Positions 1 to 54,154 of a DNA stretch of 64,000 nt are shown in pieces; within the stretch, counting starts at the first letter, position 1; each line of letters begins with the position of its first letter. This stretch comes from Moniliella sp. 'wahieum' (lineage: Eukaryota), in contig RSEE01000017.1 of NCBI GenBank assembly GCA_003971905.1, positions 682,001-746,000 of the forward strand, read 5' to 3'. Position numbers and translations under genes: made by a program. The notes under the pieces were generated by a model. That model worked only from the letters and a program-made list of their open reading frames with translations, was not told where the DNA came from and ran no database searches.

Positions 1-3000
1 GAAGTGACAGTGTCACGTGGGGGAGAATGAATGTTCGGCCCTCGAAAATTCACAAAAGAGGGGGTCATCTTACTACATGGTGTAGAACAACAGACCACGG
101 TGCCACATGGTTACTAGTAGCGAAGATTGTGGAAGAGTCCATGCAGGCACATGGGCACTGAGGTCCACACAAGACACTCTAAATTGGGGCTCGCCTCCTT
201 GTAGCACAAGTAACATGCAACCGGAGTGTCCTCTTTCAGGACGGTCTTGTGCGAGTAGTTCGGGGGCACCTTTTTCCCTGTACGACCATCACGTCCCTTT
301 TGCGCCATGCGGCCATGGGTGCACCCATGAGCGACAAGTAGCGCCAAGAATCTTTTTGGGGTGCAGTAGGGTTCTGGACCCCTCAGCCGGGCAGCCGACG
401 CAGTGGACCATGTGTTAGCACATGATGATGTTACATGCTATGCATGATATGCTTCCTGTTCGGGCCACAGAGACACTCGAGCATCGGTTCGGATCAGGCA
501 CCCCAGCATGGACCGAGATCCCGATAATCCTTCGGTGTGCTGTTTAACGACCTTTTCCCCAAAAGGTCGCATGTTACAGTTCAGTCAACCGCGCAGAAGG
601 CACATGGCAAAGTCTGTGTGTGTTTCGCACAAAGGGGCATATCTGTAGGCTGTAACAAGTACAGGTATTACCTCAAGGGGCCAACGCTATACTTGTGTGA
701 AGTTATCCATTGTGGCCGGGAGAGCTGATGGGTGGCTTGTGCGCCCAGTGAGCGCAGTTGTGGCGTTCGCACTCTGCCCGATTTAGGTGTGCACATGGTT
801 TTCTGGTGTGGCACCTGTCAGCTTTAAGTTCTGAAGCCGGGGCTTGGAGAGGAGCCGAAGAGCCGAGGAGCCGTTCGCCTCTCCGCGTGGTTGTATGGCC
901 TACGACCCGCTGCGGTGATCAGGAGAATTGGGACGGGGCAACTGTGACATAGTGAGCATTACGATGAGGATTAAGCTTTGAGCTTTAAGGTTAAAGTGCC
1001 AGCAGGATAAGATTGATCATCGACCATCGATATGATAGTCCAAACCTATACACAGAAGAGGCCTGCGACAAAATAGATGATTTACTTGAGATATTGTATG
1101 GGGTCTACTTACAGTCTTGAGGGGCGTTCCTTTGGTCTAGTCCGTCCTCCGATGGTGCATGGTGGGAGACGGTGGTACCTGAGCCTGGCGGTGGCTATTA
1201 TCTCTCCCAAGATAATGTCAACTAACCTTTGTGTCAAGCTTCAAGCTTCAAGCATATGCCAAAAGTCTCCATGTGGTCAAGACGCCGATCGAATCGGAGC
1301 CTATACGTCAAAAGGCTTGGCTTTTGGAACGTGAAACGTGATGCGTGTAATCGATGATCGATGGATGGTGACCGGTGACCGGTGATGAGCGATGCATGAT
1401 CGATGTTCGGGCAGAGACAACAGAGACGCAGCCATAGCACAGCTAGCACAGCACTGCGTGCGCTCTCTTTTCAATTCGAGCTTCTCCAGACGAGGTGTCG
1501 TGCACCTCGTTGTCTCGCCTCGAGAATGGCCGAGGTGGACTGGTCTCCCTTGCCAGCAGGGGGATGGAAGTAGTTACTAGTAACAAGTAACTAGCGACCT
1601 CTATATAGTGAAGCAAGAAGCTGTAGTAATAGAAGTAACTATTACTACCTGGGAAGCCTGCATCCAGCAACATCGTAAGAGCAAGCGTCGTGTTGGGGAC
1701 CCCAGCTGTCAGCGCCAGAGGGGTGTGCTGCCCACGCAAGATGGCCTGGGATGGCCTCGGGTACTCGCTATGGCTGTGACATGCTTTACGCGACAAGCTG
1801 TCGTTCTGCCGCATGCGAGCAGGACGTGGGGATAGAGTGCGTGATATGTGGCGTATCACATGCGTCACATGATTTGGGAGATCTGAGACCGCGGGCGCGA
1901 CGCATGTGACGTGATTAATGATTAACGTTTAACGTACTTGACGATTAGCTCGACTATCGATTATCGATTTACGCGCGAGGGCATCGCGGCAAGGCAGTTG
2001 AGGCAGTCGAGGCAGTCGTCGAACAATGGCGCTTTCCTGCGCCCGACCCGACCCCGAACTGGGCGGGCCGAGCGCTGTGGCTGGGCTGGGACAAGGGGTT
2101 TGCCCAGGAGCAGCTGCCTGCCCAGTCTTCGGAACAAAAGGCGTCGCAAGCCACTGCGTGTGGGTTAAATGTTCAGGCATCAGGCATCAGGGCTGCGATT
2201 GAGGCGTGCCACATGCCATGCGTCGCGTACACGGCCTCGTTCGTCATCGGCATTATCGACACCATCCGCATCATCCGCAATCGATCGATAACCACCCCAG
2301 CCAACTCCGACCATGAGGCTGTGGTCTGAGGAGACCATGAGGATTCGGGTCAGTGCCTCGACCTCCATCTTATCGAAGCTAGCCCGAGGCGTTGTTGTTA
2401 GGCGCTGTAGTGCGAGCGCAGATGACTAGATGTTTTAGCGTCTTGGCCCGCTTCTGTTTCTCGGCAGGCCCAAACCGTATGGTTGCCCCCCTCCCACCAC
2501 CACCCCAGAGCCCAGGCAAGCCACGAATGATGCAGATGATGCGACGCCTCTCGCAGCCCTCCCCCCTACACTCTATGTAAGAGCGGAAGCACCTTCCCAT
2601 ACTTGTTGGCTGAGGCTGAGCGCTGAGAGGGGCTGAAGCTGAGCTGCTGAGCTCAATATCGGTACTCAGCGAGTACTCAGTTGAGTAATACTCATGGCGA
2701 AGGCCTACGGCCTAAAGCCTAAGAATCAAGTTCCTATTAGGGTACATGGCCAGCAGAGTGGCATTGCAGTGCACTGCCACCGTAGGACCACCCAGGACCA
2801 TCCCCCCCTCCGCAGTACCTACACTGGCCTCCTGCCACGCTTTCCCCACGCGGGTGCGCGGGCCGGATGATCGATGAAATATGATACACCACGGCCGATG
2901 GGGAAGCAGTGCCCAGTTGCCTTTGTCTCAGTTTACAGCCATCACGCATCCCATACATCATGGATCATAGGCCTTGGACCATTACACCCATCCCTTGTCT

Positions 3001-3185
3001 CCGGTTCCTCTCGTAGTCCTGCCACCACCCTCCCACCCTTGTCACTTCCACCCTCATCGATCATCCCAGTAGCGTGCCAAGTCGTATATATACCCTCCAA
3101 CCATCGGCCTCCTGTCTTCATTCCCCCACCCCCTTCCTCTGCTTCGCCCACACCTTCGCGGCTTCTTCTCCTTCCTCTCCACACC

Positions 3186-4437
3186 ATGCAGCTCTCAAGC
3201 ACATTTGTTGGCCTGGCCGTTGCCCTTGGCGCGGTACACGTCGCCGCCATCCCCTTCGGCCCGAACGGGGTCGATCACTGTGCCGCTCACCCGCCGGGCT
3301 GAGCGCAACTTCCGTCGTGCCGACGGATCGCTGGACGTGGCCAAGTTCAACCGCGAGCGCGCGCTGATTCGTGCCAAGTACGCGCGCACCCTGGCAAATT
3401 ACGAGCGCAACACCGTTCCAAGCACGCTCTTGCTACTGCCTCTGCCACTCGCCGCCGCAGTACCGGCACGGTCGACCTGACCGACATTGAGCAACAGTCC
3501 CTCTGGACCGGCGTCATTGGCTTTGGCTCGCCCGTGCAAGACATTCACATTGGTATGTTCCCCTTCCTCTCCCTCCGATTTCGATCTTGCTTTGCATCGG
3601 TCGGACACTCACCGTTCTTTTGTGGTTCTGGGGGGGGTCTAGATTTTGATACCGGCAGTTCCGACACGTTGGTGAACCAGGGCGCATACGACCCTGACTC
3701 GTCTTCCGACTCTTCCGACACGGGCACGACCTTCAGCGACTCTTACGGCGACGGTACCACGGCCTCGGGCGAAGTGTACTCGGACAAGCTCACGATCGGC
3801 GGTCTCACCGCCGACACCGCGTACATTGGCCTTGCAGACCAAACGTTCATTACGGGCGAAGGCAACAGCCAAGGCATCAGCGGTATGGCGTTCCCTAGCC
3901 TCAGCTCCTTCCAGCAACAGGAGCCTTACTTTCTCGTTGATCAATGCCGGTGTCTTGGACCACCAGGCGTTTATCTTTACCCTGGCTGAGGATGGTTCGA
4001 CCTTGACGTTGGGTGCGACTGATTCCAGTGCCGACTTTACCCCGGTCACCGACGCATCCTACTGGACTGTCGACGCTTCGGTAGAGGGTACCGATATCTC
4101 TGCCATCGTTGACACGGGCACGACCTTGATTGTGGCCCCCGTTAGTGATGCGGAGAGCTTGTACAACCAGCTCGGGCTCCAGTACTCTACCAGCGACGGC
4201 CAGGCCCAAGCGACGTTTGACTGTGACTCGCCGCCCTCGGTGAGCTTCAAATTTGGTTCCAAGACCATCACTTTGGGCGACTCGGTGTCAGCTGGTACCG
4301 ACTCGGACGGCAACTGTGTCTTCACCGTGGTAGGAGAAGACATGGGGATGGATTCGTGGATCGCTGGCGACTCCCTCATCGACTCGACTTCTAAGGTCAT
4401 CTTTGATGTGGCCAACCAGCAGGTGGGCTTTGCCTAA
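3186..4437 (+). CDS. Secreted pepsin-like aspartic protease (A1 family)
   Basis: Signal peptide MQLSSTFVGLAVALGAVHVAA, propeptide, catalytic motifs HIDFDTGSSD (formed across intron 3553-3642, GT..AG) and IVDTGTT, flap SYGDG, C-terminal WIAGD..FDVANQQVGFA. About 3 apparent frameshifts. Confidence 0.93.
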
Positions 4438-5457: not shown

Positions 5458-5540
5458 AAGAGAAAGGATGAGATAGAGAGAGAAAGAAAGAGAGAGAGGA
5501 GAAAGAGAGAGGGGGAAGAGAGAGAGAGATAAGAAAAAAA
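5458..5540. repeat. Purine-rich (GA)n-like microsatellite
   Basis: Direct reading of GAGAGAGA/GAAA runs. Confidence 0.85.
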
Positions 5541-9399: not shown

Positions 9400-12300
9400 C
9401 GGCCGGAGAGGAGGGGGGGCGGAGGTGGTGGTGGTGGTGTGTCGTCTGACCACGAGACGATCGACCAGCGACGGTCGAATGCCCCTTCCGCCGCAGCTCT
9501 CCCTGCATGCGGCGAGGGGTACAGCCAGTGCCGGTGGTGGGTGATGCATGCATGATGCATGATGGGCCGGATGTCCGCTCGTTGACCGCTGAGGTTAAGC
9601 GTTGATGCACTGATGCATGGTGTGCATGCATGATGCATGATGCCTGCTGACGCGCTGACGCTGACCTCATCGATCATCGATCCCTCTCACCGGCACTAGT
9701 TACCCAGTCGGTGAAGCCCCGAGGGGGATGTAATGCATGGCGTGTGACATGTGATGCATGATGCATGGGCGGCTCGCACCTCGCACAGCGCCAGTTTCGG
9801 CCCCAGCATCCGGCCCGGGAGCTGCACACTGCCCGTCTGCTGCGGACGGCGTTCCTGGAAGGACAGGGGCCACGTGCAACGCCGGTAAGGCGATGGCAGC
9901 GACGAGATCGGAGAGCATGCCGCGAGGTAGCCGGCGAGGCAGCCAGCGAGTATACGCTTGCGCTAGTATATGCGGGTAGGCGCGGGCAATACGCCGGCCT
10001 GTCGCATTCCTTCGCAGCGCATGCAGCATTATGCACCGCTTCCCTGTGTGAGAATGGGAGTGGCCGTCCAAGCCAGGCCAGCACAAGCCAGGCCAGCACT
10101 GCCAGGGCCCATGCGCCTTTGCTCGGAGCACCCCAGCTGTCAGCAAGAAGAGCACGGGGCCAGTGCAGGGCCCGGCGTCCGTCGGGCTGGGCGGCGCGGT
10201 GGCCAGCACAGGCCAGCACACCAACCGCTCGACTCCGATCTTTGTTTGCGGTGCACCAGCCCTGCACCGCAGCACCCCAGCACACCGCAGCACCCGCCCA
10301 GTGTACACAGCCGGCGCCTGTTTCAGCACACGCGGCCCACAACCTCCCGCCGCTGGCCACTAGCCGCCACTAGCCACTGCCGGCGCCTGGGATCTGAGAC
10401 CAAGCAGGGACAAAGGCTGGACGGTTGTGGCCTCAGGCCTCAGGCCTCAGGCTGAGGTAAGCAGAAACATGTTATGCATTACATAGGAAGCGCCGAGTAA
10501 GCGCAGCGCGCTGAGCTCAGCCGTTGGCATTGTTTGCTAACGTGTTCCTCAGCACCTCGCATGCATCATGCACCGTGCCATTACTTGCATGGCTTCCTGC
10601 CCTGCCGCATTCTGAGAAATCGCGTGGGAACGCTGGCTGTCTCAGGCGAGCGTTGCACTGCGATTAGAAGCGCTATAATTTGAGCGCATGCGAAATAGCG
10701 CAGCAGGGTGGAGGTGCTGTGCTGTTTTGCATTCGCCTATTCACAAAAAATATTCACGTGCCACACCCGACATTAGTATTACACCACTTCGGCCCATCCA
10801 CTCAGTACGTCAGTACCGTCAGTACTCCTCTTCAGGGCCTCAGGACAGGGCCGCAGTACTGTGCGACTCAGTACTCAGTACCCATTACCCGGCCGTAGTG
10901 CGCAGGGTCCAGCTGACCTTTTGCATACTGCATGCCGCCACCAACAGCAACAACAGCAACTAGCAACCGCTAGAACCCCAGGCCAGCCCCCCTAGCATTC
11001 ACCACAGCATTATAACCCTCAGCCTCCAGCCACAGGTCATATATCGATCGTAGCTCATCGATTATCCATTATCGAACGAGATTACTCTATGACAGACGTC
11101 TGAGATTCTGAGATCAAAGATCGACGAGCGCTCAGGCCTCAGGCTGAGTCTCTTCTTGGCTGACATATTTTTGACCTTTCGTGTGTCTCTGTGTCGAGGG
11201 TGCGAGGGTCCTCGATTCTCGCCAGCCACTCGCTGTTTTATACGCGGCACGAAGATCATCCGCACTCTACAGTCAGTCCATCCCTATTCTCAAGTCACAA
11301 AACACGTTTTCAATTCGCTCGTACATCTCAGAGATCTTGATCTCTGGCCTGAGCCTCAGGTCTCATCGACATGAATCACATCAAGATCGTCCAACAGTGC
11401 AATCTTAATTGCATGTGGTGATGATTGAAACACGAAGGCTTTTGTGGGGAAAGAGACGCAAAGGTTGTTACTAACTGCAACGGCAAAACGGCGATGAGCG
11501 TTACCTCCGTATTTCTTCATCGACGGATCGTTTCCTTCCTCTTCCTATACCCAGCGCGATAGTACATGTTACCGAATGACTAAGCTCGCTCCAATTTCCA
11601 ATTCTGCATCCTGTGTGTCTCGCACTTCCCTTTCCTTTTGCTTCTGTTCTCTGACGGATGTCTTCTGTTTCCTCCCACGAACGATTTTGCATTTCCCCCC
11701 GCCTCTGACAGGGCCTTAGTCTCCCTCATCGTTTAGTCCCGACTGTTACACTATAATAGTCCGACCGTGCGGCGCCTTCGAGGACCATCAGGCCAAGACA
11801 CCTGGTCTCATCTGTTAGAGGGTACTGCTAGGGTTCTCCTGCACGGCCCTCAATGGATCGGTGACGTTCGCCTAGCCGCGAGCGGAAGCGTTCCGCTCGC
11901 AGGCCGCGCACGCCCTGCTCGCTCCATCTCCCTTCTCTCTCTCCTTTCTCCTTCCCTTCAGACGTTGCTTGAAGACTTTTGTGCTCACCACTTTGCCTTC
12001 ACGCCTTGTCTGAAGGCTGCTTTGCAGCTGATCCATAGGATCGCGAGTGCTCCCAAGTCGCACTCTAGCATCATCGACATCAATAATCGCATTTTGGACA
12101 AGAAAATAGCCTCTAGCTTTAGAAGACCATGCCTCGGCCGCTCAAAAATGTTTTGATGGTGGAGCAGCAAGCAAAAGCAATTACGATGGTGACCCTACGG
12201 AATCTCCGCTTCAAGCTTGAAGCTTCACATGACCCGTGACGCGTGACCGGTGACCGGTGACCGCCACACGTCATGATTGTGCGCGGAATGGCAACTAAAG

Positions 12301-12426: not shown

Positions 12427-12836
12427 ATGGCGGCAAAGCAAGTGGAGCAGCTGATTGCCCAGAACCGGGTATTTGTGTTTTCCAAGTCATTCTGTCCCTA
12501 CTGTACCGCCAGCAAACGTACGTCCTCCCCTCCGCGTTCCACTCGCTCCAACAGTCGGCACACAAAACGCGCGTATATATTGATTGGCCGTGACCGAGCT
12601 AACCCCGTATTAGCTTGCTCAACAAGTTCAACGTGGCGCCCTCCCCGCTCGGTGTGTTGGAGCTGGACCAACTGGGATCGAAGGGGGCTGAGATCCAGAC
12701 CTATTTGGCTTCCAAGACGGGCCAGCGCACCGTGCCCAATATCTTTATCAATGGCAAGCATGTGGGCGGCAACTCCGACTTGCAAGTGCTCGCTTCTGAT
12801 GGGCGACTGAAGGAGTTGCTCTCCCTTGAACGTTGA
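12427..12836 (+). CDS. Dithiol glutaredoxin
   Basis: [12 protein letters not shown] active site, [22 protein letters not shown]; intron about 12518-12613. Confidence 0.95.
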
Positions 12837-13452
12837 ACGTACTGAACCGTGTCCCACTATTTTCGTAGCTCCGTGTTACATGTGGGTCACAATATCCTCC
12901 GCGGCTGGGAAGATACACTTTGCCTGCTGACGGTTTTGTTGGTCTAACGGGACTATAGTCTGTGTTTGGAATGAGCCACTTGACTTCGGCCTCCGCTGGG
13001 GGGTGAGCTGTGTTTGCCGCTATGGATGCGGGTTACGGAAGGGCTTCGGCAAGCATGGAAATGAGAGTGACCACTGCAATGCTCACATGGCCTGGATCGC
13101 ATGACCCTGGGCGCTGGCGATGGTATCACATTCATGAACAGGGGAAGTTCGGACGAACGTTGCTGGTGCTGGGGCATCTTGAAGCTTCAAGAACTACATA
13201 CCACTGCCACGGTGATGGATGTCACATTGTCACATGTCACAAGCCGGAACAATGAAAGGAAGACATCCGTTAGGGCCAAGAAAAGGAAAGAGGGACACGA
13301 GCTGAAGAGCTCCACTTAAATTACATTGCCCAGTGGCATGGCTGTACATTCAACAGGGGGTTGGAAGGAGTCTGGGAGTCATTCGACGGCAGCGAGACGG
13401 ACGGTCATACCCGCTCACGTAGGATGCGGCGTTTCCGGGTACACCGTGATAT

Positions 13453-14239: not shown

Positions 14240-14859
14240 CTCAAAGACAAGTGGAGCGAGGTAGGGCACGAAGCGAGGCAAAAAGGGGTAGCGAAATATA
14301 TGCTCGAGGACTTGACGGATTGGAGGGTGTGTAACCCACGAAGCAATCACCTTGGCTAACAGGAGAGGGAGATGGGGGACAGGATGAGGATGATATTCAT
14401 CGAATGGAAAGAGGGCGAGGTATATATACCTCAGAGAAGAGAGACATGTGAGCTCAATCACACGGAGGAAGAGGAAGAGGAGCATAGTCAAAGAGGGAAA
14501 ACAGGGTCTAGAGCAAATCACAGAGACCAGTCAACTTGGGTGATCAAACGGTGATCAAGTGGGTCTGATCCCGACATTGGCGGGTATTGGCTCAAGAATC
14601 AGGTCGAGCGAGAGAAAACGGGAGGGAAGCGGTGATGGCGAGATAAAGGAAACGAACGTGAGAGAGAATGAAGGATTAGATCTTAGCGGGGCCCGTGCCC
14701 ATAACAGAGCTGAAAATGAAAATGGCGATGTCACATGTCACATGTCACATGCCGGCAGCGTGAAACATTTCAGGAGGGCTGCTCCACCACGTCACTACCC
14801 ACTTCAACGTTGAAGGTTGTCTTGGCCACTGCGTGTCTGCTTCTTCTTGCGCGACGACG

Positions 14860-23577: not shown

Positions 23578-23660
23578 TAAGGCCTAAGGCCTAAGGCCTA
23601 AGGCCCGTTCGCGAAGCAGTCAGATGCCCAGCCTCGTGATGCGTGACGCGTGACTAGTGA
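23578..23660. repeat. Palindromic-core heptamer arrays (TAA-GGCC)x4 and TGA-CGCG-TGA-CTAG-TGA in the RET2/asparaginase divergent intergenic region
   Basis: Direct reading; an example of the window-wide pattern described in findings. Confidence 0.9.
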
Positions 23661-23893
23661 CTGGGCTTGTTCATCAGTGCGAGGTCGGTGCAACGTCGTT
23701 TCGGAGCAGCGGCTGCTGAGTTTCACATTCATGGATGATGCAGATGATCGATCGATGGTCGATACTCGATACCCGGTGAATTCAAGCAGTTTGCAGATGC
23801 CAAGTGGATTCAGCCCGCCTCATTTTTCCGGCCCTGGGCAGAAAAAAAAAGCACGCCGACTCGATTGCTCCATTGTTTCCCCGCCATCCCACC

Positions 23894-27958: not shown

Positions 27959-29004
27959 GAATGGCATCGTGATGGATGACGTGAAGATGGACAACCGACT
28001 CGGATCTTTTGGAAGAACTGGTGGAGAGAGGATGAACGGGATTCTGCCGGGCAGAAGAAGAGCCCTACGGCCTCCACCCTTACTCGTCCCGTCGTTTCTG
28101 CCTAACTAAAAAGAGCTCCGATAACGGGGGACGGGGTCAAACTCTTGACGCGTTTCGAAATAGTTTTGTCGTAACCAGCTGAGACGCGGGGGATCCCCTC
28201 TCCCCGCCGTCTGGACGGACGAACATCGGCGGTTACAGTCTTTATCCAGCTCGATGCGAAAACAGATCTTTGGCCGTTCCCTATGAAAACAGGGTGCACT
28301 GGTCATGACCTTTGTGACAACAGGTGTGACCATCGTTTGTCTAGTACCCCCCCTCTTTCGTGTCTTCCTCTTGCACTTGTGTTGGCTCCGATACGGATGG
28401 CGTCCTAATGACCCGTACTAGGCTTTGTTTCCCCACCTCTTTCTCTCTTTTACGCACCTTGCACGCACGCTGGCCAATTTTAGTGTACCAACAGTAGGAT
28501 ACTCTCCTATATAGACCAGACACTCTCTGTTCTCCTTGATTACTCTGTTTTTTCTGCCATCGATCTCGTAGCAACCACCTTTTTACTTTGTCCATATTTG
28601 AATGCCCAGTTGGCCCTGCCTACTCTCTCAAACATACAGCAACATCGATGTAGCGCTCGCAGCTAGTTGGCTTCTTCTCCACTGTAAATTGTGAGAGGTG
28701 TGTTCGTACTGAGTTTTTGAGACATGTGAGTACTGTGTATAAGGCTCTGATTACCATCGCGCAAAAGTGAACGTTTGAACCCATTCTGATGGGCAATTCA
28801 CCGGTACTAACGGACACTTGCATGGGCCATGAGTAATGACGTTAATGACGTACGCAGCAGTCATCCGGTAACCAGGCCAGTAACCGTGTCCAACTCACTA
28901 CCGCACACGCACCACTCCTGCCCCGGTATCCGCCTTACTGTTTCCCGTCGCGGCCCTTGCGCTTTGCATTGTCTCCGTTCCCGCCCACTTCATCGGCTGG
29001 TAAA

Positions 29005-30441: not shown

Positions 30442-31804
30442 CATGATGCATGCGTGCCTAGCAACCGGTGGGATGGCGATGCCGGCGCTCTCGGTCCATC
30501 ACATCACTGCGAGCATCACTTGCGGTATCTGGATTCTGCTATCTGGAACTCTGTGTGGCGGAGGCTCGTGCGCTCAGTATGGAAATTGAACCGCACTTGA
30601 TTAATGATTGCACCGGCGCTATCCGTCTACGCGCTACGCCGATTCCGAGCGCCGAATGTGCTGAGGTAACATAATACTGCCGGTGGCGAGGGGGGCATAA
30701 GGGAGCATTGAAATGTAAAAGGAGCGGTTGCGAGCTCGTAGCTCCACTGGCTCCACTAGGTACTAGATACTAGCCACCAGTCCACCTGCCCCCACCGCTG
30801 AGCCGGTCAAATGGGAGGATTGATACTGAGGCGGAGGCGCTGAGGCGCTGAGGATGAATGATTAATGATCGATGAGATGGTGTCGATCCTCGGCCGCTCG
30901 TGGGATTTCTGTGTGACGTGTCACGCGCATCACATGGCCACATGGCCAGCGCCGACCGCAGGAGAGCGCTCCCGCGCGCAAGTGCTCAATCGCAATCACC
31001 CGCATCGCATGTGAGTGAGTATGTTCAAAGTAGAGGACACTTCCCCTGTGGCCGACACCGCCCGGATCCACATCGCCAACTGCCCTGGTGCCTTGCGAGC
31101 GGTGCGCCGACTCGCCGAGGACAAGGGTGGCCCGTGGCCGGAGGAGCGCCGAACCCTCCCGATCGCCACCGTGGCCGAGGGTGCCCCAGGCGGCCCCACA
31201 GGCGCTGCAGCACTCTCACATCTCACATGCTCACACGCTCCCACCGGCTCAACGCCCTCTGCCGCAGCGCCGCTTGCGCCGCTGTGCTGTGCTGTTTGGT
31301 CCACCGCGCACGGCGCCACTAACACATGGAATAGGGAAGCTACTGAAACGCAACGCGTAATGTAACGCACCTTGAAGCTTAGCGCTTAAAGCTCTTGAAG
31401 CTTAAAGCTTCAAGGCAGCACAGCACACCTGGGGGCAAAGACAGGCACCAGCGTGACGCATGAGCATGAGCGCTGTGCATGCAGCTTGAAGCTTGATGCA
31501 TGATGTGGCGAGTCTTGCTGCGCCCCACTGCCCTTTTGCGGCGAGCCACCGCGGAGCCACCGCGCCAGTAGCAGCACCCCACAGCACACCACACACAGCT
31601 CCAAGGGCCAGCACCATCATGCATCATGCATCATGCATCATGCACCGGCGCATCAGCGCATCAGCCCAGCCAACCCACCCTCCCCACCCTCGTCTGCCCA
31701 GAAAACAGCGAGAGAGCCTGCTCTCCCATCTCCTCTCCCCACCACACTCTCTCGTCCGCCCTCTGCTAGCCAGACCGTCCCCCCCCCCCATTCTCTTTGC
31801 CACG

Positions 31805-32518: not shown

Positions 32519-33911
32519 GCGCTTCCCCTCTTCCCCCCCGTCCCCGTCCCCGTCCCCGGTTCTCTTGCTATGTATCCGTGGCGTTTTTTGTCATGGTGCT
32601 TTCTCTCTGGCTTCAACGCTCTCTGTCCATCTCCAGCCTGGGGAGCGTACTGCACCGGGACGCAAATGTCCCCCTTCCTCCCGGTAGTTGAACACCCAGA
32701 TCAGATCTGTCCACACCTTCCCATCTCGTCTCGTCCTGGTGACGAGATGCCACATGCTACTTGCTGCACTGCTATCTTTTGTTTGTCATTTCTGGCTTTG
32801 CCCCCGTTACTCACGAGGTGTCCTAGGACCAGTGTCTTGCTCTACGTCCTCAGTCACCGTCAAAGTGGACGGGGCTGTCCCCTTTCTCTTTATTGCCATC
32901 TGTGGGCTCTGGTCCAGTATTTGTGTTTTTTCTTAGCTGGACTTGGTCCACCTCCCTGCCCCTAACTTTCGTCACCACCCTCACTCATTTTGCATTTTTC
33001 TTTTCCTCTTGCCCCCTCTAGTATGGTATTAGCATGTGGTCTTTCTCCACTCTTAACGGTCGGTCTGCCTCTGCTTGCACATTGGCCCGCACCAGAAAGC
33101 CAGCCCCCTCGTGACAGATATTGGCGGTCGCGCATAAAGGGAACCGCGTACCGCGTAACGCCCCAGGTATGGTGTTCCATGACTGGCAGACTGCAGCGCT
33201 GCCTGTGCGTGTTGAACGTGTTCAACGTTCACTGGACGTTCACTAGCACTAGCACTCTTCTCATGATCTCTTGTCTTAAGTTCTCATAGCTCATGCACCG
33301 CGCGCCATGGGCCCATGCTTCATGCCTGATCCTCAGGTTTCATGCATGCCGCCTGTCCCTCGAGGCTGAAAGATGCTTTCAAGCCCAAGATGCATGACGG
33401 ATCCCTTTAGTGACACAACTATGCGGTTTAGTAAGGCCTCGGGCGAGAACGGTTTGAACGGCCTGAACCTCAAGGCTGAGTCTCAGCTGAGAACACCTCC
33501 ACTTATAGGCTAGGAGTCCACAGCTCTTTGTTCTGCCACCGCTACCGCGCATTGAATATTGATCGATCGCCGTCAAAACAATTACCGTTGTGAGCCGCCA
33601 ACGAGATGTAGAGGGCTGCGGATGAATGGGGGTCCGCCGCTTCTGTGTTCAAAACGTTCGAATGAAGGCATGCTTGCACCATTGAATAATGATGGTATAT
33701 TGATGTTTGGTCCTCACAGCCCGAGCGAATGCGCTTCCAGTGCCTATCCCAAAATGAAGAAATGCAAGTCATCCTGACAATTGTAGGGACGAGCATCCTA
33801 GCCGTGGCAGCAGGGGCACAGAACCAGGAGCCTGGTATGGTAAACCAACCCCGCGCCAGCGGAAAACAAGGAGAAGCAGTCACTAGTCACTAGTCATCGG
33901 CTGCTCATGTA

Positions 33912-37483: not shown

Positions 37484-40400
37484 ACTGGGACGGGATTGGA
37501 GTGCGTTCGAGAGGTGAAGGAGCAGAAAGGCCAGAAGAAGGGTGGTGATCTTGTCTAAGCCAGTTTATCCATGCAGCGATCCCTGATTTATATATGTTTG
37601 GTTCCGTCGTCTTTCCGGTCTTCGGTCCTATCCTCTGCCGGTAGGCGTGCCCTACTATGGTGAACGTTGGATACTCTCTACTGTCCAAGGCACGGGCGCA
37701 ATGGGCGGGGCGGATCAGGCCTCAAGCTTCAAGCGTCAAGAAAGAACCACTGGTGCGTCAAACGGTGGGAGAGCAGGTCCGGCAACAGTCGTTGCGGCTG
37801 CGGAGATGGGCGTCGCATCCTCCCCTCTTGATGAATCATTAATCCATTAATCATGAGCCAATGAACCAGTATAATCGATCATCATTAATCATTAATCAGA
37901 CCTCTCGGACCCTGAAGGAGGACTTGGCACTTTACGATGCTCGCACCGGGTGTGACGACCGACGACCAAGAACCTCGGTGGCAACTGTCTTTCGTGGCAT
38001 CCAAGAAGTAAAGATCTGCGACTGGGTGCTGCAGGATGCCGCCCGGCATCGCATCTTCAAGCTTCAAGCAGCATCAGATGTCACAGCTTCAAGCTTCCCA
38101 CCCTCTGCGCCACCACCCATGTGTTCCCTCGGGTCTCAGCCATCGTCGATCGGTGAGCGCCAAGCCAAATACCCCACAAATACTGTCTTAGCGGGCTCTA
38201 CCCGATCTTACGCTCCCCCAAAGCCCAGTGATGCAAGTCTTGGCGTTTTGCCCGCCCCGGCTGCGGAAGAATGGCCAGCAGACACGGGTGACCTGTGAGT
38301 ACTCAGACTGAGTACCGAGTACCGAGTGGTGACCCCACAGCGACGAATACAGTCGTGGCAAGTGACAAGTGACTAGTGACATGCGGTAGGGGACCAATAG
38401 TCAAGCTGACTTCGGAGGGCGTCCGTGTCCGAGGCCTCCTCGGACCTCCCCAGGCCGCCCCAGGCCCCAGGCCTTTTCCTCGCCGGCTTCAAGCTTTCCT
38501 GCGCGGCGTAACTAGGTTAACTAGGTCCCGCGCGCGTATTTCCATCTTCCCTGATTAACGGTTAATGTGATTAATGATTTCACGGGCACGTGCAAGTCTA
38601 CTTAGTAGAGTAGGACGTTGGGCAGCTTGTAGTGTGTGTGAGTATACACTGTATGGAGTCTACCGAGGTAGCTGCACCTGACGCGTTCCTGGGGCTGTCA
38701 CATATCAGGCATCATGTATCACAGACGGGCACACTCCCTTCTGAGATCTGAGTGCGCCTTGCGCCCAGTCTGGGGGGTATAGTTATCACGTAACATGTAA
38801 CATCGATAATGCCTAAGGCGACTTGTGTGTGGGGCTCGATGCGAAGCTGCGTAGACCTGTGTAGAGTCTGATCCGCGGCGTTTGCGCAGAGCTGAGACGT
38901 GTGACGTCGTTGTGCCTGAAAAGGCGTTCGGCATCTCGCGGACGGAAGAAGAGGTAGCGCGGTAGCGAGGAACACACATAGCCCCTGAGTCTGAGGCCTG
39001 ACTGCGATTGGAGCAGCAACCGGGACGGAAGCTGCGCTGTGACATGCATGACATGTATTAACATGTGACATGTGGCGTGTGACCAGGGACTGTTGCCAGA
39101 AGCTTTGAGGCTGATGCACTGATGAATGATGAAGCTTTTGAAGTATCGGAGAGGGAGTACTCAGTCTCAGTACTGATGGTACTGATGCATGGCGGTACGC
39201 AAGAGCTCCCCAGTGACTGGGGGGTCGGAAAGCCGGGACCCGATATCGGATATCGGCGGAGAGCTATCAGCTGATATCTTTGCCAGCTGATCAATGGTCC
39301 TGCTTTTGTGGATTGAATATCGACTATCGACTGAAGAGGTGGAGACCTGTTACATGTTACGTTGCCACTGATGCCCCGACTGGTCGCCGACCGCGACCGC
39401 TCTCGTTAGACGGAGATGACGCATGACATAACGTACTAGAGGGACAAGGTCCGACACAACACAAGGTCAGTCCGTCTTTGCTGTGAGGGTTAATAGGGCG
39501 TTATATAATAGGTTCGCCCTGTGTGGTGAGAGCCTGGTGGATATAGTGCACGTGTCCTAGTATAGAGTTTTGGTGTTTTACCAGTCCCCCGGGGTTCTTG
39601 AGAGGTACCTGTGTTCTTCTACATTCCACTCACTCCTGCTCCGGCCTCACCCGTCCATCTATCACCCAGAGCTAGCAGCCGATTGCACTGCCCACGCCGT
39701 GTTTTTACGGGCAAACAGCAAACAATGAGACTAGTTACTAGTTCTTCTGTGCGCCGGCCCAAACCCAAACTGGTGGTTGCAGTTAAGAAGTCTTCGGTAC
39801 GGTCCCATCGTGACCAACTGGTGGCCGCAATCTGATCGCACCTACGGCCTCCTGGTTTTGAGTACTGAGTCCGGATGAAATGCTAGTCAACTGAGCACTA
39901 GGACTGAGGCCAGAGGGAGAGTGGACGATGGTCGAAGTATATCGAGTGCAAGGTGCGTCATTGGTTATGCATGAGGGAGACGCTATACTACTACGGACCC
40001 CATTCTCCCCCGTCTGACACCTTATGGCATTTTCATTCGTCATTCGTCATTCCTCATTGTTACGGGCTGCGGCGGACCCGAGATGGTCCGACCCAAGCTA
40101 AGGCCCGCCTGCTCCGCACATGCCCAGTAGAGCGTGCTCCGCAGGCCAACCAAGTGCGATGATGGTTGGCTAAATTATAGGTACCGTGGTCCGAACAAGG
40201 GTCATGCATCCGCACGACAATAGTCGCCCCCTGCCCAAATCCAAGTCGGCTGGCCTAAATATACGGCCACCGAGCTTCCAGTGTCGTTGCGACGGCTGTC
40301 GCCCCGTCCCCGTTTCCTTTTTCTTTCTCTCGGTCGCGCCTGCGGCGACCAACCCCGCTTTTGAAGTGTCTTCCTTTCTACATCCCCTCTTGTATCCGTT

Positions 40401-42147
40401 TCGCTTTTGATCTTTCCTGTATCCTTGGTTGATGGGGACCCTTTCCCCCACCTTCCATTCTCGTCCTCTCTCGTCCACCCTCCATTCTCGTCCTCTCTCG
40501 TTTCCATTCTTGTCCCTTCCCACTTATCCTGTCCGACTCCCCCCGTTTTCCAGCCAATTAATCCAGTACAGGCAGCCTCATCTCTTGTTAGCGTCCGATT
40601 TCTCCTCCGACCTTATTGTCCTCCAGCAATCCGTCAGTGCAGTCGCGGGAGCCCTCCTCTGGGCACGTCGATTTCCAGTGTATATCCAGTCTCAATTGAG
40701 GTAGTGTTTGTCTGCTGCTGCCTCTCCTCCCGTCCCTAAGTCCCGGAGGCTTCAGACACGTTACTACAGCCCAAGCCGGTGCAGACGCAGCCTTGCCACA
40801 CGTGTGCATCCGTCCCACCAAAGGCCTATCCTCGTCCCTAGCTCCGCTCGGATCAACCAACCATAGCCCAAGCTCGAAACTACCGTGAGTCGAAGCCGCT
40901 CACAGGCTCAGTTGGCGGGGCCAATCAGATGATTGGCCGCACGCGCGCCCCTCGCACTTCTGGGGCAGGGCGAGGGAATCCGGGTCATGCGAGAAAATGA
41001 AGGCGGCTGAGTAGTACTGCCTCCGCCCACGTCAATGGAACTGGCGCCGGGACTCTCACGAGCTCTCACACCACCCCTCCTGCACCTTCTTCTGCTTCAG
41101 GGGTCAGCCTGGGAACCTCTACGTCCATGATTCCCCTGCTCCCAGTGCAATGTCAGGCGAATTCCTCACTCATCTCCATGTTGGAGAAGGTGGAGGGCAG
41201 ACGAGCCCAGGAACGCTGTACAGACGCGTGATGGAGTTTGGCAAGTACATATCATCCACCCCACAGAGTGATGAGGTGTTGGCCTCCACCATTATAGCGT
41301 CCGTTCTACCATCGTTATTTTGCCGTGCACGGACTCCGGATGGGACTGGGACTGGAACGGGAACAGTGAGACTGGGTAATCGGGGGACCCTGCGGGATGC
41401 ATTAAAGAGGAGACTTATAATGGATGACGACTTGTCTACAATCGCGACTTTGTTGGGTTGAGAGCGAGCTGTCGTCCCAGCTCGGTGTGGTTAATAGACC
41501 CACCAGGACGGGCGTGTGTAGTTCCTGAAGGGGACAAGGCCGGTGCAATGAAGGCGAACTGCCGCTGCGGGGGGCATCATATGTAGACACACACAGCTCG
41601 GATCTGCGGCCTACTGCATCTTGGTTGCGATGGCACTACTGAGGGAGAAAAGAGCTTTGGGCTCGGCCAAGCTCGGTCCCGAAAAAAGAGCTCGCCTGCC
41701 CTCGTCTTAGCCCGAGGCATCGTGCTCCATCCCTCACAGGCGTGTTCGCACGCCTACAAAATAGACGACCTCGCCCCGCCCACATATAAACAAGGCAGGT
41801 TCAACACACATGTTCAACGTTTGCCACGGACAGTATAATAGTTAACGATACATAGGCCTTCGATTATTTCGCTGCCAAATAACGTGATGCTTAAATTGCG
41901 GTGCTGGCCTCTCCCCATGACTTTTGGGCTGTACAGAGAGATCCATGCGCCTATTCGAAATCGTCTCAGTTGCCCAAGGCGTCGCTTGAAGCTTGAGGCT
42001 TGATATCTGAGAGCTTGAGGCCCAGAGGCCAGAGGCCTCAGGGACTGAAGTAATGCCTGTGTTTCGGCGAACGCCGGGAAGAGCCCGGCGAATGCGTGAA
42101 CGACAGTCTACATCGCTCGCTCTAGGGCTCAGTATAGGGAGTTCCGC

Positions 42148-42325
42148 CCATGTCCGCCCATGTCCGTCCATATCCGTTTAACGTTTAACGTTCATGTCCG
42201 CCCATGTCCGATGCCGTCCGAATATGGCCGACATCTGAAACTGATCGCTTCACTGCCCCCCTGCCACGACCATGCCCGAGCACGGCCGACATCCGAAACT
42301 GATATCCTACTGCCCCCCTGCCAAC
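42148..42325. repeat. Imperfect direct repeats upstream of the SNG1-like gene
   Basis: CATGTCCGCCCATGTCCG occurs twice; GGCCGACATCYGAAACTGAT...ACTGCCCCCTGCCA occurs twice about 58 bp apart. Confidence 0.75.
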
Positions 42326-49422: not shown

Positions 49423-50796
49423 CTACGCTTCTTTCGTGGGAGTAACATCGGGGATGGGCAAGGCAGCGGCCTGAGCTCTGCTCAAGGTAGATTCAGCCTG
49501 CTTCAGCATCGGAGCATCGATCATCACCATCGATTCACCCTGCTGCAACCCCACTGCCCCGCGATTGTTCCGTACCGATTCGAGAGGTAAGCATGCTTGA
49601 TGCGCGCGGCCCAGAGAATGTCGCTTTCTGAAGGGGAAAAGGCTTGGTGGATGGTGGCCACTTGAGACGGGTGAATGGCCTGCTTACCATCGTACCCCAA
49701 CTCACGGCCATCACGACACTCTTCCACTAAGTACGCTTCGTCTTTGTAGTCGACGCAGACCATGTCGATCGCTTCTAGCTGGTGAGCCTTGGCGATCGTG
49801 GCCATCTGTGCGCGCGGGAAGAGCAGTTCGCGACGAGACTTGGTCCGCACGATGCCCGTCGACGCACAGTAGTCTTCACTTGCGAACAACAGCGCCGATA
49901 CGTAGGCAACATGCGACTTGCCCCAGGACCGAACTTCTTGCAGGATGCTTTGCATGTTCAGCAGCGAGGCGGCCGACTCAATGGAAAGCACGAGCGATAA
50001 AGGAGGATGCACACTGCTCATACAAGGTTCGTTGTTAGGCACCATCAACATGAGAGGGAGAGAACGCACTCCAAGTTGGGACGCAGGCTCTCTGCCCGCT
50101 CGATAACCATACGAATATCATTGGCGCTTTCGACTTTGGGCAGAAGCAGGCCCTGCAGCTGGGTCGAGGGCAGCACCACCTCCAAATCATCTTGCGCTAG
50201 CGAAGCGTCCCCCGAAGGCGGGTTGATCCGCACCAAGAGTTCCGGTCCAGGACGGGGCGCAGCCTGTGGATCCAAAAAGGGAGATCAGCTGAATTACTAC
50301 GTACGACAATGCAAGGCCCAACGTACCCCCAGAGCATACATGACCGTCTCTCGGGCCACGTTCTTTCGGTGCATTGCGACGCTGTCCTCGAGATCAAAGA
50401 TCAGGGCATCGACCTGCAACCCAAGAGCCTGATGGGAAGGGGCGAGGGAGTGAGCGGAGGCGCACCAAAAGGAGATAGGGACGTACCCGCTTAATCATCT
50501 TTTCCGAGCTGCCCGGCACATAGAGCATCGCGCGTCTCGGCGGCGCAGACGGGATCGGAACAGGAGATTCGGAGGGGGACGAGGGTGTTGTAGGGACCTC
50601 TGGTGGCACGGCGGTCTTGGGATCGGCCGGAGGCGGCGGGGCGGAGGCGAGGTGGCAGTGGAGGAGCTGAGGGAGCGCCATTGGGACGACGGGACAGCCG
50701 GGCGGGCGAGCAAGGAGGTGGGATGGGGCGAAGGATGGGCTTGCTGGCCAGGGCGGAGGGTGTGCGTGGCAGACGGGAGGCGAGGGCCAGGCGCAT
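49423..50796 (-). CDS. Citrate lyase beta-like (CitE/CLYBL, HpcH/HpaI fold), probably mitochondrial
   Basis: RRAMLYVPGSSEKMI, FDLEDSV, LLPKVES, FASEDYCA, AIDMVC, GKQAIHPSQV, MIDAPM; Arg/Ser/Leu-rich N-terminus. Confidence 0.92.
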
Positions 50797-51765
50797 GGTG
50801 GGGGTGGGGGGCATGGAGATGGGGGTGGATGGTTGCGGATGGGATGGGATGGGATTTGATGCATTTGATGAGCGACTGAGCCTGGGCTGCCTGTGATCGA
50901 GCGGATCGTCTCACTAATAAGCGGATGACCGATGATGGATATGGCGATGGATGACATGGATGGCGCCGCAGGCTGCTTGACGTAATTGCTGTCTCATGGC
51001 CGTGCTCGATGCACGGTGGGTAACAGAAGCGGCCATATCGCTGGACCAGCGGGGCCTTTGAGCCTTTCCAGACTAGACGCGTTATAAGGCGTGTTGGGGG
51101 ATGCTGCTGCAGATGGCAGATCAGGCCCATGGGCCATCCATGTATTGCTCACTCGGGACTCTTGACCATCCTCGATTGGGAACCATTCATCCTCAGGCCC
51201 TCAGGCCCTCAGGCCTCATTGACTTGATCAGGTCCATGAGCGCATGAGCGCATGAGCATTCGACGGACTGCTGGCATCACTTCCTGATCACATTGGGACG
51301 TCATGCATCATGATCATGCTCATGCTCCGGCTGGTCGGCAAGCTCTCTGACATTGCAACGGTGGCAAGGCGGAGGCTCCATCGTTCCAGCAGCTATGGTG
51401 CCTCCAAGGTGAGATCGGAAAGGGTGAAGGTTTTCGGTGGCTACGTAACGCGTAACAGCCATGTGGACGATGCGTGACATGTGACATGTGATGCATGATG
51501 CAGATCAAGCGCCTGCGCCCCCTGCAGGATGAACGTTTGACACTTGCCAGGCACAGGTACAGGGCGAGTGAAGACGCGTGCTGAAGTAATCCGCGCTCCG
51601 CTTGTGCTCGCGTTCTGGCGGGGGAGGGAGCAAGTCGGGTAGCCGCACCAGGGCGGGTGGTGCCATCGCCAGGGCCAGAGTCACTAGTCACTAGTCTGGC
51701 AAGTGCCATCGCCACCCCACCCCCTCCCATCCCCCCCTTGCGCCGTTTCCAACACAGCGGCCACC

Positions 51766-52129
51766 ATGTCGGCGCTTCCACGCAATCAGAATGTGGCCGA
51801 GATGAAGCTCCGCCGTCTGACCGAAAACAATGCGCGGCTCCAAGACGAGCTGAGCCGGCGCCGGATCAAGGTATCCGAGGCCAGCGCATCGTACGTCCCC
51901 CCTGCCCCCCTGCCCCCCTGCCCCCCACCTACCCCACCTACCCCGCCTACCCGTGTTTGTGTTGGTGCGCCACGGGCACACGTTAACTAACTACCGCTTG
52001 TCCAGGCTGATCGAATACTGCCAAAAAACCCACGACCCGCTTGTTCCGTCGGTCTGGGGCCTACCCGATAAGAAGGACGATCCGTACGCGCCACAGCAGG
52101 CCGCAATGTGCGAGTGCACCATCATGTAA
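51766..52129 (+). CDS. Heterotrimeric G-protein gamma subunit
   Basis: [58 protein letters not shown] ending in a CAAX box; intron 51891-52005. Confidence 0.96.
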
Positions 52130-53191: not shown

Positions 53192-53795
53192 CTAGTTCGA
53201 TCCCAATTGGGCTGCCAGCCAATCGAGGCCGTCCAAAACGCCTGACCCTGTAGTTGCGGACGAAGGTTGGATGTGACAGGAAACAGACAGGGTAGGCAGT
53301 GCGAGGGCGGAAGAGATCTCTGCTGGCGTCAGGGCCGCCGGCACATCCTGTTTGTTGGCAAACACCAGCACCGGTACCCCGGCCCCGACATCTTCCGCCA
53401 CAAGGTGATGCAGTTCTTCCCGTGCCAGCCCCATCCGAGCTTGGTCGGTCGCATCAACCACAAAGATCACGGCGCTCGCACCGGCCAGGTAGGCACCCCA
53501 CGAGGCGCGCAGGGACGTCTGGCCACCCACGTCAAACAGCGTGAAGCGAATGCCCTTGTACTCAAAGTCCTCCCTGCGATCCGATCGTAGGGGCAGTGGC
53601 TACGACCTGGCCCAAGGTCATGCGGTACATGAGCGTCGTCTTGCCGCATTGTCCAGACCGAGAATGCAGACTAAGAAGGGCTGGTCAGTCGGGGTGGCAA
53701 CGCAAGCCGAGGCGGGGGAGGGCGGGGACGGACTCACCCTTGAGATCTTTGGTGCCAAAGAGGGAGCTCCAGAGGGTGGAGAGCGCAATGCCCAT
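53192..53795 (-). CDS. ARL5: ARF-like small GTPase, ARL5-like
   Basis: MG myristoylation start, ILGLDNA(G)KTT, PTIGS, DVGGQTSLRASW, FANKQD, SSATTG; intron 53671-53737. Confidence 0.85.
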
Positions 53796-54154
53796 CGCGA
53801 GGAGAAGACGCAGCGCAGCTCCCACGATCGGTCGGAGTCAGCAGCGTTGGGCTGCCCAGGCGCGGCGCTGGCGCAGAGACAGACAGCCGAGGCGAGCCCG
53901 ACGCCAGATCTACCAGCCTGTGTCGGGTGCTTGCGCCGCGCAGCGTCCCAGGGCGCATGCGGCGGTGCGGGGCGATTAGGTAACGCTGCCAGGCCGCGGA
54001 TCGCGCGACCCAACTTGAAGCTTGAAGCTTGATCGTTGAACATCGGCTGGAGTTCAGGACAGGTTGCTATGGTTGCTGCTGTGGTGTGGATATAGGCGCA
54101 TGGGCTTGGCTTGCCTGTGCCATTCGCATTCTTCTGCGTTCTTTGCCCCCACGC

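Follow-up and report, generated by a model that had tools for sequence, protein, structure and literature searches.

What kind of process leaves short DNA arrays that share a period and a symmetry but not a sequence? The question is raised by a 64,000-nucleotide (nt) stretch of the Moniliella sp. 'wahieum' genome (GenBank assembly GCA_003971905.1, contig RSEE01000017.1, positions 682,001 to 746,000; below, "the window," with coordinates counted from its first base), for which an original prediction described intergenic arrays with a 7-bp period, each composed of a TGA, TCA, TAA, or TTA triplet (TNA) alternating with a self-complementary 4-mer, or core. These arrays are probably the accumulated promoter excision scars of one or more cut-and-paste DNA transposons with a 7-bp nnTNAnn target, from one or a few related families, a reading that we prefer with some reserve.

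Enrichment of the 7-bp grammar

The arrays are real. Each of the 17 cited arrays lies at its stated coordinate or a few bases from it, and perfect period-7 arrays of at least two copies number 58 in the window, where Markov backgrounds of order 1, 3, and 5 (100 simulations for each order) yield 3.5 to 4.4 and 10 at most. A palindromic hexamer is present in 33 of the 58 arrays (0.4 to 0.6 expected), and in 32 of those 33 it takes the form A-NNNN-T, the symmetry that had been described. At the scale of the window, the excess of palindromic over nonpalindromic cores is also borne out: TNA plus a palindromic 4-mer plus TNA occurs 90 times (6 to 14 expected), and the same frame with a nonpalindromic core occurs 134 times (79 to 116 expected).

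When each of the 64 triplets is placed on both sides of a palindromic 4-mer, enrichment is confined to the four triplets named in the prediction (TGA, 33 versus 0.9 expected; TCA, 25 versus 0.6; TTA, 6 versus 0.05; TAA, 6 versus 0.15) and to ATG and CAT, which are rotational echoes of them. When the palindromic spacer between identical triplets is 2 or 6 nt long, no excess comparable with that of 4-nt spacers appears. Arrays with periods of 8, 9, and 10 are also enriched (15, 17, and 4 versus 1, 0.2, and 0.05 expected).

The diversity of cores that had been reported extends to 14 of the 16 palindromic tetramers, with only AATT and TATA missing and with fairly flat usage across the 14. Within the frame TSA-N4-TSA, cores with zero, one, and two mismatched pairs number 67, 39, and 25, against backgrounds of roughly 1.5, 9, and 13.5, a series that suggests neutral aging rather than maintenance.

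Flank-templated joints and direct duplication

The elementary unit of this grammar is not the 7-mer but the 12-mer TNAwx + x'w' + TNAwx, which also occurs in mirror image: a short target is directly duplicated, and the two bases that form the joint are the neighboring flank in reverse complement. Five-base direct repeats that start with TNA and enclose the reverse complement of their last two bases occur at 42 positions, compared with 0.13 expected. Counted on both strands with any triplet XYZ in the place of TNA, 12-mers of the form XYZwx + x'w' + XYZwx number 148 (expected total, 10), and XYZ is a TNA triplet in 85 of them (39 TCA, 33 TGA, 7 TAA, and 6 TTA).

Most cores copy two bases of the adjoining flank. 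At the 34 isolated sites consisting of TNA, a palindromic 4-mer, and TNA, the matching dinucleotide lies only after the site in 11 cases, only before it in 12, on both sides in 7, and on neither in 4. Of the 67 chains in all, 54 have a matching flank (only after the chain in 19, only before it in 19, and on both sides in 16) and 13 have none, where chance would supply a match at a rate of 1/16 per side. The seven chains with mixed cores each have at least one flank match: the left core agrees with the left flank in five of them and the right core with the right flank in six. The best example lies at positions 23637 to 23662 (Table 1).

A scan for the ideal 14-mer shows where the units are incomplete. 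In segments with two mismatches, these fall on the outer pairs (0,1) and (12,13) in 10 and 12 cases, with every other pair at 6 or fewer, and in segments with one mismatch, 21 of the 38 mismatches occupy the four outer positions. Random decay of full tandem duplications would scatter mismatches evenly, indicating that the one-sided 12-mer is a primary product. In 34 of 38 cases, the first unit has a T just before it, which places the entire TNA within the duplicated target. Direct repetition of the central base is seen in 58 cases (33 TGA..TGA and 25 TCA..TCA) versus 9 in which TGA and TCA are mixed, and outside TNA the target preference amounts to a slight bias toward C/G at positions -3 and +3.

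A reverse complement of the flank at a joint is the defining mark of P nucleotides from an opened hairpin. Both components of an excision footprint are present in the window: the joint lies between direct copies of the target (as seen in the TNAwx repeats, the direct central base, and the 7-bp duplications described below), and the joint bases are the reverse complement of the flank (in 54 of 67 chains, and in the piling up of mismatches at the outer positions). The combination matches the form of a target-site duplication (TSD) plus P nucleotides.

Length of the duplication

The 12-mer is compatible with either a 5-bp duplication plus two P bases or a 7-bp nnTNAnn duplication in which one opened 4-nt overhang was kept. 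Variants with longer periods favor the second. Seven-base direct repeats (D7) separated by two P bases, giving a period of 9, occur at 16 positions versus 0.1 expected, with TNA exactly central in 6 (e.g., CGTCAGT AC CGTCAGT), and those separated by one P base, giving a period of 8, occur at 43 positions versus 2.9 expected, with TNA central in 16 (e.g., CCTCAGG C, CATGAGC G, and TCTGAGA T). In both classes, the number expected with a central TNA is 0.0, and these variants lead us to prefer a 7-bp to a 5-bp duplication. Plain 7-bp duplications with TNA occur at about five loci. A 7-bp stagger would make the target symmetric about N, as would befit a dimeric transposase, and the equal incidence of matches before and after (12 versus 11 at isolated sites and 19 each in chains) fits such symmetry.

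Two other constructions were considered and rejected. The seven apparent cases of a 5-bp duplication with P bases from the TNA end all coincide with the usual type, leaving none that is independent, and a palindromic duplication of 4 bp with TSA as a 3-nt filler is ruled out by the constancy of TNA across mixed-core chains.

Distribution relative to genes

Defined as stretches of TNA grammar of at least 12 nt, 61 events occur in the window, falling into 13 clusters, at a density of about one per 400 bp of DNA outside open reading frames (ORFs). Coding-like sequence is avoided, as had been claimed: none of the 61 events lies within ORFs with Pfam hits (about 16.9 kb in total), and 6 lie within ORFs of at least 200 amino acids (aa), which make up 49% of the window. 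The companion claim that arrays recur in most intergenic regions holds roughly, given the 13 clusters, with the qualification that several intergenic regions have no event at all.

With gene direction taken solely from Pfam-anchored ORFs, 9 of the 13 clusters are located 5' of a gene, and the remaining 4 have no anchored neighbor. The genes concerned encode an aspartyl protease, GWT1, asparaginase, ribosomal protein S25, a second aspartyl protease, a DUF3533 protein, an HpcH aldolase, Arf, and proline racemase. Both of the Pfam-anchored gaps between converging 3' ends (16533 to 16873 and 48642 to 49527) contain zero events. This placement makes promoters the likely location of the arrays, in which the strand orientation of TGA versus TCA relative to the neighboring gene is mixed.

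The same grammar in metagenome contigs

A scan of metagenome contigs with a single query, the 17-nt AGCT array at positions 54014 to 54032, recovered at least 121 loci. Among the matches listed, the array has CT before it or AG after it in 96 of the 115 that are evaluable, and the 101 listed matches whose flanks are not 7-periodic comprise 20 with a match before only, 33 after only, 31 on both sides, and 17 on neither. Within the listed loci that are 1.5 kb or longer (381 kb in total), 12-mers with other cores account for 22 loci-events versus 3.6 expected; examples are TCAGGCCTCAGCGCTCAgc (L004), TGACCGGTGACCGGTGAcc (L110, where an AGCT array lies 100 bp from it), and TGAGGCC x2 plus TGAAGCT x2 (L117). 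Among the matches listed, these other-core events gather in contigs with low ORF coverage (L001, L009, L004, L062, and L047), and nearly all non-AGCT events are in the 29 eukaryote-like loci versus 2 in the 14 prokaryote-like loci. Eukaryotic domains in the low-coverage contigs are Peroxidase_2, Maf1, choline kinase, NPHP3_N, ankyrin, and GH31, and contig L075 is Agaricales-like (Hebeloma, 67%; Galerina, 68%); the grammar occurs in other basidiomycete-like genomes.

In two orthologous contigs (L002, 640 to 1040, and L067, 800 to 1210; 88% identity), the array differs by one unit. This difference, together with the presence of the grammar in metagenome contigs, indicates that the grammar is not peculiar to this genome or its assembly and that it turns over between relatives. 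The same two contigs differ by further indels of 4, 9, 10, and 15 nt, one of which is a near-tandem duplication of ATTATGTT.

Several loci recovered by the scan have features of their own. Four AT-rich contigs (L010, L023, L046, and L096) share a common sequence around the AGCT array (..gtactgcagtg [array] gcggtgg.gatcaccgctggttcaag..), which suggests a dispersed repeat or a conserved element containing the motif. L020 and L021 are one contig, in which a segment of 1.2 kb or more recurs as two or three diverged internal copies (77 to 83% identical); the AGCT array is present in at least two of these copies. Six loci (L013, L048, L051, L059, L098, and L108) are long heptamer arrays of a single unit, of types GCTTGAA, GGCTTGA, and GCTTGCA; among the four long enough to be classed by ORF coverage, L048 (0.98), L051 (0.89), and L059 (0.75) are prokaryote-like, and L013 (0.55) is under the class cutoff. 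Bacterial heptamer tandem repeats (STRR-like) share with the TNA arrays a 7-bp period, an intergenic location, and, at these six loci, some units of the GCTTGAA type, but they form long one-unit arrays in prokaryote-like contigs and do not display the multicore grammar of TNA and palindromic 4-mer. Several of the prokaryote-like loci recovered by the scan seem to belong with them.

A model of scar formation by excision

The anatomy of the arrays could be produced by cycles of insertion and excision. An element would insert at nnTNAnn in nucleosome-poor promoter DNA and generate a 7-bp TSD; several cut-and-paste elements prefer promoters or nucleosome-free DNA. During excision, the transposase would close each flank as a perfect hairpin, and host nucleases would open these hairpins, mostly 2 nt from the tip, to expose self-complementary 4-nt 3' overhangs, each consisting of two flank bases and their reverse complement (the P nucleotides). 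End joining that retained one overhang would yield TNA + wxx'w' + TNA + wx, or its mirror image, for a net gain of 7 bp, the product to which the palindromic scars of 54 chains would correspond. Other opening positions would yield gains of 8 bp (one P base), of 9 bp (two P bases, with both duplications intact), or of a plain 7 bp. The original prediction had offered, as one of two options, a symmetry-generating mutational or repair process, and its hairpin-opening version comes close to this anatomy, half of each core being the reverse complement of the joint flank.

Each such scar would recreate TNA inside a perfectly palindromic 7-mer. The overhangs of such a 7-mer would be identical and cohesive, so that a further visit would add an exact unit, as slippage also could. 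Repeated insertion and excision, or later slippage, would add identical units and thereby build arrays, and use of the left versus the right flank would yield mixed cores.

Comparison with known transposon systems

The original prediction knew of no named feature class for the arrays, but transposon excision footprints with P nucleotides are such a class, as two reports describe (PMC3499496, PMC5873905). hAT footprint bases that are complementary to the flank arise through hairpins (PMC3499496, PMC5873905): the footprints of TcBuster, which makes an 8-bp nnnTAnnn duplication, include insertions complementary to the flank (PMC3499496), and the P insertions that Ac/Ds leaves in Candida albicans are short and palindromic (PMC5873905). 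MULE, hAT, Transib, and RAG alike turn the flanking DNA into hairpins, and the flank hairpin of Muta1 measures 43 + 43 nt (PMC5499845).

The scars in the window resemble the flank-hairpin footprints of hAT elements (Ac/Ds and TcBuster), MULE, and Transib, as well as V(D)J coding joints, in that both copies of the duplication are retained and the joint bases are complementary to the flank, and presumably also in arising from end joining after the opening of a hairpin (PMC3499496, PMC5873905, PMC5499845). Their short P lengths (1 to 2, rarely more) are similar to those of the C. albicans footprints (PMC5873905). Whereas known footprints were assayed at one donor site, the window presents a fossil record, TNA centered and with a probable 7-bp duplication, that is known from scars alone, and unlike known footprints, its arrays chain up to four units with mixed cores.

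Among basidiomycete transposons, 7-bp duplications are made by hAT7, in Pucciniales, and by Kyakuja, in five orders of Agaricomycotina, the latter belonging to the KDZ group and having CA..TG termini without inverted repeats (PMC12730594). These groups are like the putative source of the scars in duplication length and phylum, and the grammar-bearing contig L075 is Agaricales-like, from a group in which Kyakuja is reported (PMC12730594). As to further traits of Kyakuja, a 7-bp duplication is the one that the scars point to, and the window ORFs that were scanned contain no transposase domain. CATG makes up just 9 of the 90 cores, so the cores are not remnants of CA..TG element ends. An origin of the cores as remnants of transposon termini, as in Tc3-type footprints, is ruled out by the use of 14 of 16 cores, each of which copies its local flank.

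Transib/RAG-like systems combine a 5-bp duplication with a perfect flank hairpin. The 12-mer would fit 5 bp plus two P bases, yet TNA is the center of a 7-bp duplication at six period-9 loci, and a 5-bp stagger leaves a TNAnn target without symmetry. Elements of the PIF/Harbinger type make 3-bp duplications, usually TAA or TTA. Their trinucleotide target is like T-N-A; unlike theirs, the duplication in the window is at least 5 nt and clearly 7 nt in six loci, the central base is mostly G or C, and the flank bases wx repeat along with TNA, whereas 3-bp TSDs are recorded for PIF/Harbinger (PMC12730594). The scars are not filed here under any one transposon family. Excision footprints with P nucleotides are already known; in the published literature searched, we found no record of a genome-wide, TNA-centered, array-forming footprint in fungal promoters and no footprint ascribed to transposon families with 7-bp duplications.

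Evidence against an excision origin

Several observations weigh against the excision reading. The 64-kb window contains no transposon, no TNA-flanked pair of terminal inverted repeats, and no transposase domain: among the 239 scanned ORFs, all 110 aa or longer, none encodes such a domain, long repeats are absent with the arrays themselves as the only repeat families, and of the 10 inverted-repeat pairs of at least 10 nt that lie within 5 kb and are flanked by equal triplets, 0 are flanked by TNA. With no element in the window, the agent goes unobserved and is deduced from its scars. Two products that the model allows are not enriched in the window, namely, TNATNA (35 versus 39.5 expected) and TNA with two successive palindromic 4-mers before the next TNA (one case, at 9542). 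Taken alone, the 12-mer fits a 5-bp duplication plus two P bases equally well, and arrays of three to four units could arise by slippage rather than by reinsertion. We found no record of hAT7 or Kyakuja from Ustilaginomycotina, a group that the main text of PMC12730594 does not mention.

The density of events demands long-sustained activity. By our own estimate, which assumes about 17,000 scars per genome, scars that stay intact to about 5% divergence, and a mutation rate on the order of 2e-10 per site per generation, about 7e-5 scar-leaving excisions per genome per generation would be enough, a rate that a low-copy element could supply.

The final objection is chemical. The center of an Ac/Ds footprint is the complement of the base adjoining the element, i.e., it is odd centered (PMC5873905), unlike the junction palindromes in the window, which are even centered (wx/x'w'), so that canonical hAT chemistry does not fit. 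Worked out by hand for 8-bp and 7-bp duplications, that chemistry predicts odd-centered palindromes or an inverted central base. The 8-bp duplication of canonical hAT elements (Ac/Hermes) is likewise not what the window displays, the period and the D7-plus-P variants both pointing to 7 bp; by duplication length, however, only the canonical form is excluded, since a 7-bp hAT7 subgroup exists (PMC12730594). In its chemistry, the proposed reaction resembles the perfect hairpins of MULE (PMC5499845) or of Transib/RAG more closely than canonical hAT.

Alternative explanations

The evidence from duplications and P nucleotides is silent on whether the enzyme was mobile. A host nuclease, such as a domesticated transposase, might make staggered, hairpin-sealed breaks at TNA in open promoters that are then repaired by end joining with no mobile element involved, and the lack of an element within the window and the density of scars limited to promoter-like DNA would both suit it. 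We nevertheless judge such an origin unlikely: a duplication of fixed length at a symmetric target is the hallmark of integration and would not come from a nuclease alone, the same 239 ORFs contain no transposase-like domain, and we know of no such break-and-repair system in fungi.

Replication slippage or template switching without a double-strand break, which we rate as no more probable than a host nuclease, would rely on TNA-loop hairpins formed by the odd-palindromic 7-mers, on the nascent or the template strand, to promote the gain of units and palindrome-restoring copying. Whole arrays are indeed nearly self-complementary, neighboring cores show many symmetric double differences, periods of 8 to 10 are enriched as well, and the two orthologous contigs differ by one unit of the array. 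A slippage-born microsatellite or minisatellite would gain and lose whole units of a repeat already present, and its unit would obey no sequence rule. Slippage, however, needs a preexisting repeat, and the commonest product is a 12-mer with just five duplicated bases and a flank-templated 2-nt inversion; neither this 12-mer nor the restriction to TNA nor the flank rule is expected from slippage. Fold-back copying would invert the central base, which is direct by 58 to 9, and hairpin stability leaves the A....T form of the hexamers (32 of 33) and the use of TNA triplets alone unexplained. Template switching or quasi-palindrome correction acting alone, which the original prediction had listed beside hairpin opening, likewise leaves the direct central base and the TNA-only usage unexplained.

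The location of the arrays in promoter-like DNA, and the likeness of several hexamers (e.g., ACGCGT and ATGCAT) to what we take to be known palindromic factor sites, might recommend selected cis-regulatory arrays, either as tandem palindromic hexamers for dimeric transcription factors or as a one-factor TGA-N4-TGA code, the latter akin to the TNA-N4-TNA binding or structural code that was the second option of the original prediction. A transcription factor array would have one motif conserved in orthologues, whereas 14 of 16 cores are in fairly flat use, cores decay by point mutation (67, 39, and 25 with zero, one, and two mismatched pairs), strand orientation with respect to the neighboring gene is mixed, and the array in the orthologous metagenome contigs (L002 and L067) differs in both unit number and sequence. 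A flank-copying rule would also be meaningless for a binding code. Selection for binding is accordingly very unlikely, and the second option is not upheld.

A sequencing, basecalling, or assembly artifact has a negligible chance of being the cause, in that many independently assembled metagenome contigs contain the same structures, the arrays avoid coding-like DNA, and we know of no artifact that would yield so sequence-specific a rule.

Implications

If the excision reading is right, a large share of short promoter indels would derive from one transposon activity, not from ordinary replication error, and the scars would preserve, in genomes seemingly almost devoid of transposons, a fossil record of transposition that could be dated. 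The element so predicted would have a 7-bp nnTNAnn target and form perfect flank hairpins that are opened 2 nt from the tip, and its excision would provide a steady supply of perfect palindromes exactly at the places where transcription factors bind. For annotation, 7-bp "microsatellites" of this type are not to be taken as regulatory motifs without further evidence.

A broader and rather unlikely extension is that a hairpin-forming transposase, mobile or domesticated, keeps retargeting the TNA that each scar regenerates in nucleosome-free promoters and that excision repair across Basidiomycota generates every perfectly palindromic A-NNNN-T hexamer (ACGCGT, ATGCAT, and AACGTT, for example), which dimeric transcription factors would later recruit. 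The process would then be a mutational engine that writes new promoter elements.

Catalog of arrays and gene content of the window

Table 1. Arrays and related structures in the window; a period between letters separates triplet from core, and the second column gives the coordinate of the original prediction where it differs.
Position	Original coordinate	Structure	Location or remark
1234..1253		TCA.AGCT array, 2.9 units	End is the flank-matching AG(C)
1348..1385	1350, 1369	TAA/TGA.TCGA pair, then TGA.CCGG x2 + TGA	Single promoter-like region
1912..1935		TGA.TTAA x2 overlapped by TTA.ACGT x2	
9542..9564	9541	TGA.TGCA.TGCA.TGA.TGCA.TGA	Sole case of TNA, two palindromic 4-mers, TNA; product expected if both opened hairpin overhangs were kept
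9626..9682		TGA.TGCA units, CTGACGCG/CTGACG variants, then TCA.TCGA x2	
9745..9767		Mixed chain TGA.CATG TGA.TGCA TGA.TGCA	Both flanks follow the rule
10429..10452		TCA.GGCC array, 3.4 units	
10802..10825		Period-9 variant CGTCAGT + AC + CGTCAGT	7-bp duplication, central TCA, 2 P-like bases
10866..10881	10868	TCA.GTAC x2	
12211..12263		Composite TCA.AGCT TGA.AGCT TCA.CATG, then TGA.CGCG TGA.CCGG TGA.CCGG TGA	
12826..12840		TGA.ACGT x2	
13178..13241		14-nt perfect palindrome CTTGAAGCTTCAAG, TCA.CATG units, period-8 variant TGTCACA+T	Central base of the palindrome inverted
14728..14751		TCA.CATG array, 3.4 units	About 60 to 100 bp upstream of GWT1 ORF
23578..23605		TAA.GGCC array, 4.0 units	Upstream of asparaginase gene
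23637..23662	23644	Mixed chain CG TGA.CGCG TGA.CTAG TGA CT	Left core is the reverse complement of CG + CG; right core is CT + its reverse complement
28834..28851		Period-9 variant (minus strand, CGTCATT + AA)	7-bp duplication, central TGA, 2 P-like bases
30857..30875		Mixed chain TGA.TTAA TGA.TCGA TGA	Flank match on left only
31371..31414		AGCT/GCGC units	Centers TGA, TTA, TAA, TCA
31483..31505		Mixed chain TGA.AGCT TGA.TGCA TGA	Flank match on both sides
31615..31644		TCA.TGCA array, 4.3 units	Longest in the window
33878..33896	33880	TCA.CTAG x2 + TCA	Upstream of ribosomal protein S25 gene
37715..37898	37882 (included)	TCA.GGCC TCA.AGCT TCA.AGCG TCA; TAA.TCGA TCA; TCA.TTAA x2 + TCA	Upstream of minus-strand aspartyl protease gene
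38055..39870		About 10 further events: 38055 TCA.AGCT, 38368 TGA.CTAG/CATG, 38790 TAA.CATG, 39059 TAA/TGA.CATG, 39170 period-9 variant, 39859 TGA.GTAC, among others	Long promoter-like region
41984..42194	42178 (included)	TGA.AGCT TGA.GGCT units + TTA.ACGT x2	Upstream of DUF3533 gene
51191..51327		Period-8 variants CCTCAGG+C x3 and CATGAGC+G x3, then TCA.TGCA + shorter variants	Period-8 variants have 7-bp duplication, central TNA, 1 P-like base
51474..51502		Mixed chain TGA.CATG x2 TGA.TGCA x2	
51679..51696	51680	TCA.CTAG x2	Flank match on both sides
54014..54032	54016	TGA.AGCT x2 + TGA	Between Arf gene (5' side) and proline racemase gene (3' side)
55491..55507		TAA.ACGT TGA.ACGT	Upstream of proline racemase gene

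The window has a base composition of 58% G+C, and its ORFs are short and interrupted. Eukaryotic domains in it are those of aspartyl proteases, GWT1, CENP-N/CHL4, ribosomal proteins S25 and L18A/L20, Arf, and a protein kinase. In a protein search with one aspartyl protease, the nearest named relatives were from Tilletiaria anomala (46%), Ustilago, Violaceomyces, and Malassezia, and the top match overall was an unnamed protein with 57% identity, which places the source among basidiomycetes in or near the Ustilaginomycotina and without close relatives in the protein collection searched; a search with the glycosyl hydrolase ORF of the window returned no matches. Two aspartyl protease (PF00026) genes, at 3303 to 4434 (plus strand) and 35733 to 37564 (minus strand), lie 32 kb apart, and the upstream region of each is array rich.

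Other simple repeats in the window are of different types. Positions 5449 to 5536, 5625 to 5644, and 19269 to 19283 contain a (GA)n/(AGAGAAAG)n microsatellite rich in purines and two runs of poly-G, 20 and 15 nt long. C-rich tandem repeats (CCCCCCTG x3.8, CCCCACCTA x3.3, and CCACCCCC) and a 27-bp repeat x2 occur at 51897 to 51952, 42438 to 42463, and 40448 to 40501, in promoter-like DNA and with no relation to the TNA grammar. Tandem duplications of period 9 or 10 without TNA lie at 1435 to 1452, 2000 to 2018, 10201 to 10220, 10356 to 10375, 36069 to 36088, and 42143 to 42176; several have a 1- to 2-nt junction complementary to the end of the unit, and they may be plain duplications or the scars of other element families.

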